Assembly (NCBI RefSeq): GCF_003018235.1
Contig: NZ_CP027437.1
Source: Escherichia coli
Lineage (GTDB): Bacteria > Pseudomonadota > Gammaproteobacteria > Enterobacterales > Enterobacteriaceae
DNA length: 64,000 nucleotides
Strand: one strand, 5' to 3'
The notes beneath the pieces were generated by a model. The model made no database searches. It worked only from the letters and a program-made list of their open reading frames with translations, and was not told the DNA's origin. Numbering within the stretch: the first letter of the stretch is position 1; each line of letters starts with the position of its first letter. The translations under genes and the position numbers were made by a program. This document shows positions 4,634 through 25,766 of this stretch, piece after piece.

Positions 4634-5392
4634 TTAATCCGTACGCCGGGCAACAATAAACAGACGCGGAAATGCCAGCAGTATCTCTCCGTTCTCTTGC
4701 AGTGGATACTGCTCTTCCAGCATCTGATGGTAGCGCGTAAGAAAATGCTGCTGTTCGCTCTCGGTCAGATCCTGTAACCACGGACGTAATCCGGTGGCGG
4801 TCACCCAATCGATAATCGCCTGGTGCGACGGCATCTGGTGATAGTAGGTGGTTCGCCAGATATCGACCTCACATCCGGCTTCGCTCAAAATATCGTAGTA
4901 AGCATGAACGCCAGCCAGCGGCTCACGCCCGCGATCCGGGTAGTTTTGTTCCCAGGCAACTTCGCGCATGAGCACATGGGTCGGCTCTAGCCAGTTATCT
5001 GGCATCTGTACTGCCAACACACCCTGCGGATTAAGTAAAGAAACCAGATGAGGGAACAATTCGTAGTGGTCGGGCAGCCATTGCAGTGAGGCATTAGCAA
5101 AAATCAGATCGAGTGCCTGTTCCGGTTGCCAGTTGCGGATGTCTGCTTCCACGAACTGGCAGTCTGGCAAAGCACTGCGCGCTTCAGCAATCATCGCCGG
5201 AGACGAGTCGATGCCTGTTATCCTGGCCGCAGGCCAACGTTGATGCAGCAGGGCGGTGCTGTTACCTGGGCCACAGCCAAGATCGGCAACGTATTCGATA
5301 TTTTCCAGCGGCACTCTGGCAAGCAGCTCCACCGCCGGACGCGATCGTTCAGCGGCAAAGTGCAGATATAAAGAGGGGTTCCAGTCAGACAT
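4634..5392 (-). CDS. tam: Trans-aconitate 2-methyltransferase
   Basis: 252-aa ORF, SAM-MTase motif [10 protein letters not shown]; located directly downstream of lsrG on the same strand. Confidence 0.95.
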
Positions 5393-6664: not shown

Positions 6665-7687
6665 TCAGAAATCGTATTTGCCGATATTCTCTTTGTTGAA
6701 TATCACGCGCTCCGGTAACAGTACGATGCCATTACCATCCGCTTCGTAGTCATAGCCCTGAACGCTGTTTGGCGAGACTTCCACCTGACCTACGCCCTGG
6801 ATATCCAGCTTGTCGCCCGTTTTCATTGATCCTTTTTTCAATAATGCATCCGCGACATAAACTGAAATTTTGCCTTGCTGAACCACATCCCACAGGCCAA
6901 ATTCTTTCACCGTGCCGCGCTCTACATACGGGCGCATCACATTTGGCGTACTGAATCCGACAATCGCAACTTTGTCATTTTTCAGGTTTTCTGCGGCTTG
7001 TGCGGCAGCGGGCAGGGCGTTGGCATCGGGGGCGATAATGGCGTCGAGATCGCTATACGCTTTTAATATTCCTTCTGCGGTTTGTAATGATTTAGTGGCA
7101 TCGTTATAGCCAAACTGCGTAGTGACAATTTCCCAGCCAGGATGCTCTTTGGCGATTTTCGCTTTCGCTTCTTTCACCCACTGGTTTTGGTCCGTAACGG
7201 TGGGGCTTGAGTAGAAAAACGCGACTTTGGCTTTGTCTTTATTCACCTGACGCGCCGCCATATCCACCAACATACCTCCCAACTGGGCGGGCGTTCCCTG
7301 ATTAATGTAGTAAGAGCGGCACTCCGGTTTGGTATCAGAGTCCCAGGTCAGCACTCTCACACCACGTTGCATGGCGCGTTTCAGTGCCGGACACAAGCCA
7401 TCAGGCGAAACCGCAGAAACGATAATGGCGTTATACCCCTGATTGACGAAGTTATTAATCAACTGTACCTGACCAGAAACACTGGGTTCTGTCGGCCCGT
7501 CGTAGGTCACATCAACGCCCAGCTCTTTACCCGCTTGTTGTGCGCCGTTGCCACCGCTGGTAAAAAATCCTACGCCAACCAGTTTGGGAATAAATGCAAT
7601 ACGCTCTGCCGCCTGCACATTCATAGAGATTACGGCAATGCCAAGCGCGCTAAGTAAGGCGATTTTCTTAAAGCGATGAAGTGTCAT
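6665..7687 (-). CDS. lsrB: AI-2 periplasmic binding protein
   Basis: 340-aa ORF with signal peptide, sugar-binding-protein fold; lsr operon context. Confidence 0.9.
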
Positions 7688-7698
7688 GAAGATATCCT

Positions 7699-8691
7699 TT
7701 ATGGCAATGGGTTATTGGCCCGACGCGCCAGCCACTCTTTAATTTGCTGGCGATGCAGGCTAACGGAACGACCTACGACAACGACGATAAGTAGCGCACC
7801 GGAAAGGGCGCTGGACACCTGATTTGGCACTCCTGCCATTTGCAAACCTTGTTGCAAATATCCCACTAATAAAACCGCAATGGCGGTGCCGATAATGGAA
7901 CCAGAACCACCATAAATATTGGCACCGCCGAGCACTACGGCGGTGATGGCGGGCATCAGAAACGACGCACCGAGATCGGAACGTGCTGAACCAAAATACG
8001 ATACCAGCAGCACAGCGGCGACCGCAGACGCCAGCCCCGTCATGGCATAGAGCGCACATAAGGTGCGGTTAACTGGAATCGCGCTATAAACCGCCACACG
8101 CGGGCTTTGCCCAATTAAAAACACGTTACGTCCGGCATGGGTTTTATGCAGCCAGAGCCAGAAAACGAGGAGACATATCAGGAAGATAATCAGCGGAACG
8201 GGGAGTCCCAGTACATCCAGGTTAGCGAAATCTGTAAACGCCATCGGGAATCCACCAATACCTTCGTACCCCGTCGCTCCGGCCATCCCGGAAAGCAGCA
8301 GGGCGCTTCCGGCAAACAGATACAGCGTGCCAAGCGTAATCACCAGCGGGTTAACTTTGGTATAGATAATTAATCCGGCGTTGATCAGCCCGCACAATGC
8401 GCCGAGCAGTAAGGTCAGGAGAATCGCCAGCGGCATCGGCACACGACTTTGAAACAGTACGCCCAATGCAATGGCGCAGAGGCCGATAGTCGAACCAAAC
8501 GAAATATCGATCCCACCACTGACAATCACCATCGTCAGCGGTAGGGCGACAATGCCAATGCAGATAAAGTCACTGGTGCTGAACAGCAACATATTGAGAT
8601 CTAACATCCGCGGGTTAATTGCACCAAATGCTACAATCTCAATAACGAGCAGTGCGGCAAGAGCCAGTTCCCAACCGTAGCGAATACGCAT
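7699..8691 (-). CDS. lsrD: AI-2 ABC transporter permease
   Basis: 330-aa polytopic permease; 1-nt overlap with lsrC. Confidence 0.9.
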
Positions 8692-23296: not shown

Positions 23297-24100
23297 ATGA
23301 AAAGCGTACTTGCAGCAGCGGCTATGTCGCTTGTTATTTCTGATTTTGCTAATGCTGAGGAAACAAGAGGTAAAGCTATGATGAAAATAGAACCGTCAGC
23401 GATTTCGGAAGCTGATATTCGTTCCGTCTCACCGGCTCTCGCGCGCTTTGGTCGCGAAGCTATTACTGAAGATCTGTGGACACGCGACGCCCTCTCACCG
23501 AGGGATCGTAGTGTGGTGACCGTCGCCATGCTGATTGCCCGCAACCAGCCTGCCGAGCTTAAGCACTATATTGACGTCGCTCTCGATAGCGGCGTGACGC
23601 CAGCGGAATTATCAGAAATCATTACCCATCTGGCGTTCTACTCAGGTTGGCCAAATGCAATGTCAGCCGTCAGCGTGACCAAAGCAGTATTTGAAACTCG
23701 TGGCGTCACGCCAGATGCGCTTCCTGACGCTTCTCCGGACCTGCTTCCTCTCAATCAGGAAGCAGAAAAGCAGCGTTCAGAGACAGTGGAAAAAAATGTT
23801 GGCCCAATATCTCCAGGCCTGGTTAAATTCACTGCTGATCCACTCTTCCTGGATCTATGGCAAAGACCCGCGCTGAAACCCCGCGACAGAAGCCTGATTA
23901 CGGTCAGCGCCTTAATCGCATCCGGACAGAGCGCGCAGATTGGCTATCACCTCAATAGAGCAATGGATAATGGACTTTCTGTTGAGGAAGCTGGTGAGAT
24001 CGTTACCCAGGCCGCCTTCTATGCTGGCTGGCCAAACGCATTTACCGCTGCTCCGGTTGTGGGAGAGGTGCTAAACAATCGATCATCGAGTAAAAGGTAA
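23297..24100 (+). CDS. Secreted protein with two carboxymuconolactone-decarboxylase (CMD/AhpD-like) domains
   Basis: 267-aa ORF; signal peptide (MKSVLAAAAMSLVISDFANA|EE); internal duplication (...HLAFYSGWPNAMSAV... and ...QAAFYAGWPNAFTAA...). Confidence 0.7.
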   Translation: MKSVLAAAAMSLVISDFANAEETRGKAMMKIEPSAISEADIRSVSPALARFGREAITEDLWTRDALSPRDRSVVTVAMLIARNQPAELKHYIDVALDSGVTPAELSEIITHLAFYSGWPNAMSAVSVTKAVFETRGVTPDALPDASPDLLPLNQEAEKQRSETVEKNVGPISPGLVKFTADPLFLDLWQRPALKPRDRSLITVSALIASGQSAQIGYHLNRAMDNGLSVEEAGEIVTQAAFYAGWPNAFTAAPVVGEVLNNRSSSKR

Positions 24101-24149
24101 CATTACCGAACACTAAAACTTGACGCACATCACAACATTAGAACGAACA

Positions 24150-24234
24150 GTTCATGAACCAATAAGCGTAACATCGAGTGATTTATGGACAGCGTTTAAC
24201 ACAGTTATGAACCAAAACTGAGTTCATAACTGTG
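24150..24234. promoter_or_regulatory. Palindromic motif cluster: 10-bp palindrome GTTCATGAAC and a perfect 13-bp inverted repeat with 9-bp spacer
   Basis: GTTCATGAAC at 24150-24159; CACAGTTATGAAC (24200-24212) / GTTCATAACTGTG (24222-24234). No T-tract follows, so operator-like rather than terminator-like. Confidence 0.4.
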
Positions 24235-24514
24235 AGTTTGAATCGCCATTTGATTAATATCCATTTAAAACAGTTTGTTATGCTGTTTCTGGTGCTGAAG
24301 TCAATTATGTATATCCCTCAAACCCAGAATAGTTAAATGGAATTTGAGTGATGCGAAGCGATTTTCCAGTCGTCGTTATTACTTCAGGGTTCCAGAACAT
24401 AAAGCCTCTCCTCTTTCATGATTGGCCTGTGCATACCGGATATAGGCTGGCTGGTATGCAGGTTTGCCGTTTGCCGCATCTTCCCTGCGTTGAAGAGTCA
24501 GGCTGGCAAACCGC

Positions 24515-24769
24515 GTGCAAATGAACACCCCCACTTTCCATCAACACTTCAGACAGCTTGCGGGAATGAGTCCACTCCGGTATCAGAAATGGCTACGCCT
24601 CAATGAAGCCAGGCGACTGATGCTGAATGAACATTACGATGTCACCACTGCAGCCTATGCTGTCGGTTACGAAAGCTTATCCCATTTCAGTCGGGAATAT
24701 TCGCGGATGTTTGGAGAGTCACCTAAGAGAGATATTACCGGGTTAAGAAAGTCTGTCGGTCAGCTTTAA
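24515..24769 (+). pseudogene. C-terminal fragment of an AraC/XylS-family regulator (second HTH only)
   Basis: 84-aa ORF with the AraC signature region (...GYESLSHFSREYSRMFGESPKR); no ligand-binding domain or first HTH in any upstream frame. Confidence 0.6.
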
Positions 24770-25202
24770 TAAACCCTGCACTTATCTGTTTAGAGCAATT
24801 CCGTGTTAGTTACACCAGTCAAACATTAACCATAGCTAATGTTTTATAGCCATATAAACCATTGGCCGCTCTTGACCTTTCCTGACACTTCCCTTGTTCG
24901 CAATAATATTCTGTTTAGTCGCTGTTTATAAATAACATGCATAATGAAATCGTAATGTTATTTAGCGACATAAAATGTCTTTGCAAATACCCTCTACAAC
25001 AAGTGCTGCAATAAACTTGTTGTGATTAGGTGTCCTTGTAATTTAAAGATATTATCGTTCTTCGTGAAATGTAATAACCCTGGAAACTATATTCTCAGGG
25101 CAATATCCCATCAAGAATGATTCTTGTTTTATAAGCAATAACAGAATGACTTAATTGTTAACTTTCTTTATTCAGCTACTTAAATATAAATTTTGGAGAA
25201 TT

Positions 25203-25766
25203 ATGAAACTCAAACATGTCGGTATGATTGTCGTTTCTGTGTTGGCGATGTCGTCTGCTGCGGTAAGCGCAGCCGAGGGTGATGAATCAGTAACGACCAC
25301 TGTTAATGGCGGTGTTATTCATTTTAAAGGTGAAGTGGTAAATGCCGCTTGTGCGATTGATTCAGAATCAATGAACCAAACGGTTGAGCTGGGTCAGGTC
25401 CGTTCTTCTCGTCTGGCTAAAGCGGGTGACCTCAGCTCCGCCGTTGGCTTCAATATCAAGCTGAATGATTGTGATACCAATGTTTCCAGTAATGCAGCTG
25501 TTGCATTCCTGGGTACTACTGTCACCAGTAATGACGATACGTTAGCGCTGCAGAGTTCAGCGGCAGGCTCTGCCCAAAATGTCGGTATTCAAATTTTGGA
25601 CCGTACGGGTGAGGTATTAATACTTGATGGTGCCACTTTTAGCGCTAAAACTGACTTGATTGATGGCACGAATATACTGCCGTTCCAGGCTCGTTATATT
25701 GCTCTCGGGCAGTCAGTAGCTGGTACTGCAAACGCTGATGCGACCTTCAAAGTTCAATATCTATAA
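25203..25766 (+). CDS. Fimbrial major subunit (F9/Fml-type pilin)
   Basis: 187 aa from ATG 25203 (GGAG SD 4 nt upstream); signal peptide then pilin domain with a conserved Cys pair. Confidence 0.85.

Follow-up and report, generated by a model that had tools for sequence, protein, structure and literature searches.

The short open reading frame (ORF) lying between the redox genes and the f9 fimbrial genes of the window (the whole 64,000-nucleotide stretch of Escherichia coli DNA analysed here) is the long-annotated, already known E. coli pseudogene yneL. Very probably it is a non-functional relic of a regulator gene that was transcribed divergently from a hydrolase operon and decayed by at least three deletions beside the dif site. 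The ancestor would have encoded a 304-aa distant paralogue of YqhC, composed of an AraC_N (PF06719) sensing domain and a DNA-binding domain with two HTH motifs, and have faced away from an operon for a signal-peptide-bearing alpha/beta-hydrolase, with or without an Fe-alcohol dehydrogenase (Fe-ADH) and a DUF2255 protein. By analogy with YqhC, it may have activated this operon in response to a small-molecule ligand. The deletions, at least three in the E. coli lineage beside the chromosomal dif and in an order that we infer, would have taken most of the DUF2255 gene, most of the hydrolase gene, the divergent promoter region and regulator codons 1-216. What remained, without the sensing/dimerisation domain or the start of the first HTH motif (HTH1), would persist as neutral DNA, with dif (or the redox genes) on one side and the f9 promoter on the other. 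The yneL stub is of little importance in itself and its value lies in the corrections it brings to annotation and interpretation: it should not be taken for a regulator that the redox genes next to it have lost.

The region is terminus-proximal in E. coli and runs in the order hipB-hipA, dif, yneL and yde/f9 fimbrial operon (Table 1). Truncated regulators are common in E. coli accessory regions.

Table 1. Features of the window around the yneL relic
Feature	Position	Strand	Basis or remark
hipA	18674-20053		ORF
dif split by a ~320-bp insertion	20130-20475	+	Two ends of a dif-integrated filamentous prophage
Amidohydrolase remnant, residues ~281-344 of 344	20486-20695	+	tblastn E 1.7e-40; Pfam Amidohydro_2 positions 227-289 of 289
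Amidohydrolase tail ORF, 63 aa	20504-20695		
Flavodoxin-like NAD(P)H oxidoreductase	20846-21418		ORF
Aldo-keto reductase (AKR339)	21421-22440		ORF
Double-ABM protein	22556-23281		ORF
Double-CMD protein	23297-24100		ORF
Intergenic DNA 3' of the CMD gene	24101-24338		93% to L009 7355-7592; homology stops at GTTAAAT (24332-24338)
DUF2255 gene 5'-end relic, frameshifted, with ribosome-binding region	24348-24420	-	blastn, tblastn, gapped alignment
Partner alpha/beta-hydrolase gene relic, codons ~220-239, LTLQRREDAANGKPAYQPAY	24441-24501	-	Abuts the AraC relic
AraC-family pseudogene relic (yneL type)	24503-24769	+	Codons 217-304 of a 304-codon AraC_N + 2xHTH regulator, plus stop
84-aa stub ORF, GTG start	24515-24769	+	Direct sequence reading
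f9 fimbrial promoter, published	24917-24953	+	-35 TAGTCG, 18-bp spacer, -10 CATAAT; matched to the description in PMC3966885
Complete FimA-like/chaperone/usher operon	from 25203		

A C-terminal fragment of a two-HTH regulator

What is left of the regulator? In Pfam the stub ORF hits HTH_18 with 80 bits (cutoff 33.6; E 1.6e-22) over profile positions 6-76 of 80, and HTH_AraC with E 4.9e-9; the first-pass annotation was right that only the C-terminal ~84 residues of an AraC/XylS regulator remain. A protein homology search with the 88-aa relic returned short ORFs only (up to 154 aa) and no full-length protein; full-length orthologues were obtained through contig look-up and a genome scan with one genome per species. 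The reference locus for collinearity is L009, a Logan contig closest to Enterobacter mori, where the AraC gene is one frame of 304 codons with a single in-frame TAA. The scan found intact copies of 304-309 codons in E. mori, E. vonholyi, Enterobacter sp. MGH 24 and Klebsiella michiganensis. The E. mori protein carries AraC_N at residues 31-181 (E 8.6e-45), HTH_AraC at 204-244 and HTH_18 at 217-291. Over its full length the intact orthologue is 28% identical to E. coli YqhC (E 2e-38), and it gives weak domain-level NCBIfam matches to the single-domain AraC models MarA, SoxS and Rob.

Homology of the stub to these orthologues begins four codons before the GTG, at 24503. In tblastn, residues 217-304 of the 304 in L009 align to window 24503-24766 at 88.6% identity (E 1e-56), and in blastn window 24502-24770, the AraC C-terminus, aligns to L009 10120-10388 at 87%. 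In ~98 complete E. coli genomes (~2%) the argW-intS island carries an intact 304-aa second copy; in one of them, M18, the island regulator WP_000622442.1 is 91% identical to the relic. By descent the stub is therefore an AraC/XylS member, given its HTH_18 and HTH_AraC matches and its identity of 88.6-91% to intact 304-aa regulators. It lacks the complete ~100-aa two-HTH DNA-binding domain of a functional member, as well as the N-terminal effector-binding/dimerisation domain; AraC_N, the mark of the YqhC-like subfamily, is found in the intact orthologues and is gone from the relic. As the first HTH motif spans residues 204-244 of the intact protein and the relic begins at 217 (221 when counted from the GTG), the first 13 residues of this motif are lost (17 from the GTG). 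The stub had been described as reduced to its last HTH: the second motif is indeed whole, but the last ~28 residues of the first are kept too.

Could the rest of the gene be hidden by an error? Searching window 24050-24800 in every frame with a full-length orthologue (tblastn) gave no credible match to residues 1-216 (next-best E 1.7), so no single sequencing correction restores a full gene. This bears out the earlier statement that no ligand-binding domain is encoded in any frame, and the check proposed with it recovered neither degraded N-terminal remnants nor a full-length ORF obtainable by one correction. An assembly or sequencing artefact, whether a frameshift or a short misassembly concealing an intact regulator, is vanishingly improbable: besides the unmatched residues 1-216, the nucleotides 5' of the stub stem from other, opposite-strand genes, and the identical architecture recurs in thousands of independent complete genomes. 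PGAP/RefSeq calls the equivalent of 24503-24769 a pseudogene, 'incomplete; missing N-terminus', in the near-identical strains 1190 and 10035776-3.

Relics of two neighbouring genes 5' of the fragment

The 414 bp 5' of the stub ORF are not a random spacer; they are a string of relics collinear with L009. Window 24000-24338 matches L009 7254-7592 at 93% (blastn), covering the 3' end of the CMD gene and the intergenic DNA behind it. Next comes the DUF2255 relic, with 86% to L009 8045-8087 (window 24377-24420) and 85% to 8001-8026 in blastn; on the minus strand it reads MFWNPEVI and DDWKIASHH, which tblastn aligns to residues 1-8 and 15-23. The hydrolase relic is 80% identical to hydrolase residues 220-239 (tblastn E 2.7e-8). 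Its nucleotides match L009 8547-8599 at 87% over window 24443-24495 and, better still, the argW island of M18 (L023 5989-6043) at 94.5% (E 1e-19, both blastn).

About 2.5 kb of an L009-type locus has thus shrunk to 163 bp of relics, which takes at least three deletions; measured against L009 they are ~408 bp, ~459 bp and ~1.5 kb long. The third junction joins the hydrolase relic (~codon 220, minus strand) to AraC codon 217 (plus strand) and shows GAAG microhomology. The truncation together with its flanking relics makes the stub a pseudogene by deletion rather than the product of an alternative start.

The frames 5' of the stub had also been tried as a degraded AraC N-terminus, with 'IGWLVCRFA' set against 'IDWLKTHIA' and a 7-bp TTTGCCG duplication taken as the frameshift. 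This AraC match has an E of 1.7, and the same nucleotides belong to the opposite-strand hydrolase gene by both blastn and tblastn; the reading was dropped.

A perfect 13-bp inverted repeat, CACAGTTATGAAC-N9-GTTCATAACTGTG, lies at window 24201-24235, with a related half-site at ~24148. L009 carries it identically at 7454-7488, where the CMD and DUF2255 genes converge. The repeat, which has no T-run behind it, may serve as an operator or as a bidirectional terminator-like element.

The left edge of the redox genes is a scar as well, since only residues 281-344 of a 344-aa amidohydrolase, intact in L009, are left in the window. Strain 1190 keeps residues 1-45 and 164-344 of this protein. Both borders of the module are therefore deletion scars, in agreement with the first-pass annotation.

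The partner operon and the regulator of the redox genes

Which genes did the intact regulator serve? In L009 the locus starts with a LysR gene on the minus strand, followed on the plus strand by a small hypothetical gene, a 165-aa gene, AKR315, the amidohydrolase, ABM and CMD; it continues with DUF2255 and a 359-aa alpha/beta-hydrolase, both on the minus strand, and the AraC_N + HTH gene on the plus strand. The DUF2255 and hydrolase genes thus sit between CMD and the regulator. The loci compared were L009 and L011-L014 (Enterobacter and K. michiganensis; five in all), four draft Klebsiella loci (L005-L008) and E. coli M18 (L023). In every intact or near-intact locus examined, the divergent neighbour of the regulator is a secreted alpha/beta-hydrolase operon. 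DUF2255 is also present in L009, L012 and L014 and absent from L011 and L013; Fe-ADH stands between hydrolase and regulator in L012 (as a full gene) and L023. The remaining flank genes vary by locus (TIR/PNP, FGE-sulfatase, Pirin, luciferase-like, MalT-like, LysR), and ABM and CMD lie near the regulator in L009 only among these loci, and in E. coli.

The hydrolase bears a signal peptide and matches Pfam Peptidase_S15, DLH and Abhydrolase_1. It does not belong to the UilS lactonase family, its best NCBIfam match, which scores 64 bits against a cutoff of 400. The same divergent operon beside all intact regulators points to the regulator plus a (Fe-ADH)-hydrolase-(DUF2255) operon as the conserved functional unit, and, judging from this conserved divergent synteny and from the YqhC analogy, the hydrolase operon is the probable target of the intact regulator. 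In M18 the unit occupies L023 5627-9071 as regulator, divergent Fe-ADH and alpha/beta-hydrolase. M18 and E. mori share 97.8% identity in the hydrolase protein, which indicates a recent horizontal transfer of the regulator-Fe-ADH-hydrolase unit of the argW island. The true partner operon is hence accessible in Enterobacter, Klebsiella and the ~2% of E. coli genomes that carry this island.

The relic had been taken for the dedicated regulator of the flavodoxin-like/AKR/ABM/CMD redox module, orphaned by the truncation. Such a role has some appeal: the regulator sits 3' of the ABM-CMD genes in both E. coli and L009, both module edges are scars, and YqhC, a characterised AraC_N-family member, controls the aldehyde reductase genes yqhD and dkgA. 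We nevertheless consider it unlikely. The two opposite-strand genes separate CMD from the regulator in L009, where the regulator diverges from the hydrolase, and the regulator-hydrolase pair occurs without nearby ABM or CMD in E. mori, E. vonholyi, Enterobacter MGH24, K. michiganensis, the Klebsiella loci and M18. The redox operon has a divergent LysR gene of its own at its head, and the flavodoxin-like and AKR339 genes came as an insertion relative to L009 (see below). Comparison with intact loci in other species, which had been proposed as a check, thus upholds the truncation and speaks against the redox role, as the intact copies pair with the hydrolase operon instead.

Have the redox genes lost a regulator at all? 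Probably they have, though not the AraC protein, so that this part of the earlier claim survives with a different regulator in the place of the one named. The redox operon is headed by a divergent LysR gene in L009 and in strain 1190, whose LysR protein is WP_001057775.1 and which also has AKR315 and a glutamine-amidotransferase-like gene. In strain ST2747 a 3' remnant of LysR is fused exactly at window junction 20486, and the LysR gene of the redox operon is absent from the window. LysR is most plausibly the regulator that these genes lost.

The flavodoxin-like and AKR339 pair (window 20807-22515) is a clean 1.7-kb insertion relative to L009, in the amidohydrolase-ABM intergenic space (5768/5770), so the 'redox module' is itself mosaic. 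E. coli and the Enterobacter-type L009 share 93% identity in their ABM-CMD genes, which suggests that the island has been horizontally exchanged. A search of window 19900-25300 against Rfam at a relaxed threshold gave nothing relevant, with one match far below its gathering score at 21265-21418.

The dif setting

The relic belongs to a variable zone directly beside dif, a setting that helps explain the many alternative deletion states found there. A perfect copy of the 28-bp dif site, GGTGCGCATAATGTATATTATGTTAAAT, is present in K-12, O157, strain 1190, ST2747, E. vonholyi and Enterobacter MGH24; the Klebsiella copies have one or two mismatches. The site keeps a constant orientation and lies 0.2-7 kb 5' of the regulator or relic; the literature agrees in placing K-12 dif between hipA and yneL.

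In the 64-kb window there is no perfect dif anywhere, the site being split by an insertion of ~320 bp. The left hybrid dif begins with GGTGCGCATAATGTGATACGCG, its left half dif being GGTGCGCATAATGT, and the right hybrid, AGTGCGTATAAGATATATTATGTTAAAT, has four mismatches to dif. The insert consists of the ends, in permuted order, of a CUS-like filamentous prophage encoding Zot, a secretin and Rep: 20131-20229 corresponds to L022 2703-2801 and 20232-20388 to L022 2501-2656. Being made of two permuted prophage ends, it would be either a gene-less 'mini' Xer-exploiting element or a prophage minus its interior. It folds as single-stranded DNA better than shuffled sequence does (z -3.8), and relatives at 80-90% are found in 940 E. 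coli genomes as well as on 467 plasmids, most of them conjugative. The exact dif/insert junction of the window occurs in no complete E. coli genome of the collection.

In K-12 and O157-type strains the DUF2255 relic starts right after the XerD arm of dif (…TTATGTTAAAT; L003 4766-4800 and L004 5980-6015). The GTTAAAT that closes the homology downstream of CMD in the window (24332-24338) is the same 7 bp as at this dif/relic junction, and the presence/absence polymorphism of the module accordingly looks like a deletion between two copies. An insertion of the redox module beside pre-existing relics, in place of its deletion from K-12/O157-type strains, was judged unparsimonious because in L009 the CMD, DUF2255, hydrolase and AraC genes follow one another without interruption in the same order. 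The right end of the 4-10 kb module polymorphism falls exactly on the oldest relic junction (24338/24339), a coincidence that a simple series of deletions does not fully account for.

In K-12 (L003 ~4900-5000, aligned to window 24438-24560) an unrelated segment of ~120 bp occupies the place of the hydrolase relic and of the AraC relic's initial ~19 codons. A separate deletion is seen in K. pneumoniae ATCC 13883 (L015 9555-10255 against L007): it is 5.3 kb long, begins 430 bp from dif and took the Gp_dh gene, the gene of a GlxA-type regulator, the DUF2255 and hydrolase genes and AraC codons 1 to ~222. The stub left there comprises AraC residues ~223-304 and starts ~6 codons from the E. coli breakpoint (217).

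Distribution, decay and expression of the relic

A 701-bp query around the stub is 100% identical to E. coli strain 1190 and matches 4270 of the 5426 complete E. coli genomes, at full length in 482; the relic is thus kept in 79% and missing from ~21%. With the deleted 1.5 kb as query, none of the 5426 genomes has an intact allele at the yneL site, the only match being the argW-island paralogue.

The relic carries marks of decay beyond its truncation. Over the 88 codons, omega (Nei-Gojobori) is 0.04-0.2 for intact orthologues, whereas comparisons of five E. coli relic alleles give 0.37-1.2; the E. coli values rest on just 2-14 substitutions per pair, so the contrast is suggestive of relaxed selection and not statistically strong. 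O157 alleles have A->V, L->T, S->R and S->L at positions invariant among the intact genes. K-12 yneL has a 1-bp deletion (frameshift) in addition to its ~120-bp replaced segment, the relic of strain ESDR8 is frameshifted by a 17-bp tandem duplication, and the ORFs called across strains are 49-91 aa long. Secondary lesions of independent origin and, on small counts, relaxed selection both fit a pseudogene.

No Shine-Dalgarno sequence precedes the GTG or the next ATG (the ~20 nt 5' of the GTG read GAGTCAGGCTGGCAAACCGC), no promoter-like site was found at 24100-24515, and a promoter and terminator scan of 24000-25300 gave counts no higher than in shuffled sequence and no terminator. The published f9 promoter lies ~150 bp 3' of the relic stop, its transcription start ~251 nt before the ATG at 25203. 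In microarray compendia the signal of yneL, an annotated pseudogene, varies with conditions (PMC9308461), which makes some transcription likely. Deleting 525 bp that include yneL left growth unchanged in a cSDR assay (bioRxiv 10.1101/2025.09.02.673814).

Might the 84-aa product nonetheless have been co-opted as a mini HTH protein, DNA-binding or dominant-negative at the sites of the intact paralogue, and be kept by selection? The frame is still open in many strains, the relic's prevalence is high, the array signal depends on conditions, and K. pneumoniae ATCC 13883 independently holds nearly the same fragment. Co-option is very unlikely all the same: the first 13-17 residues of HTH1 and the entire N-terminal domain are gone, the sequence before it shows neither a Shine-Dalgarno sequence nor, at 24100-24515, a promoter-like site, and the frame is shifted or shortened in K-12, ESDR8 and many variants of 49-71 aa. 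Non-conservative changes (A->V, L->T and S->R among them) hit conserved positions in O157 and other alleles, the intact paralogue is present in only ~2% of genomes, and the one growth assay of a deletion including yneL showed no effect. As the E. coli and ATCC 13883 truncations are independent and only ~6 codons apart, one could also suppose that the breakpoint or the retained segment of ~85 codons was favoured, as a spacer or insulator between dif and downstream promoters or as an interfering HTH peptide. We hold this to be highly improbable; if it were true, a small HTH peptide could interfere with the intact argW-island paralogue in some strains. The reading as a non-functional yneL relic is kept.

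A contig labelled as a Candidatus Nanosynbacter MAG (L016) carries the K-12 type of yneL relic (96.7%, same 1-bp gap) together with a dif site that matches that of E. coli perfectly; the MAG is almost certainly contaminated with E. coli DNA.

Comparison with known systems

Three known systems resemble the stub or its ancestor. MarA and SoxS, like the N-terminal domain of Rob, consist of the AraC DNA-binding fold alone, as a functional 'HTH-only' product would. In MarA and SoxS both HTH motifs are complete, within ~107-127 aa. The relic, in contrast, begins within HTH1, lacking 13-17 residues of it, and its scores stay well under all NCBIfam equivalog cutoffs.

YqhC responds to aldehydes and activates the divergently transcribed yqhD-dkgA operon (PMC6115493, PMC8262776). 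The intact orthologue shares with it the AraC_N domain, two HTH motifs, a length of ~300 aa and a position divergent from a detoxification-type operon, and in E. vonholyi and M18 the partner operon is led by an Fe-ADH of YqhD's family. It differs in being a distant paralogue and not an orthologue, and in a partner operon made of a secreted hydrolase and DUF2255 instead of DkgA; the window copy, moreover, is merely a relic.

The closest counterpart is K-12 yneL (b1506, 'putative HTH-type regulator YneL'), which is the same C-terminal fragment at the same locus, from hipA-dif to the yde/f9 fimbrial genes, and aligns to window 24560-24769 at 96%. Compared with it, the window allele is longer, has no frameshift and keeps 88 homologous codons. 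K-12 lacks the CMD, ABM, AKR and flavodoxin genes and an intact f9 operon, whereas the window has both.
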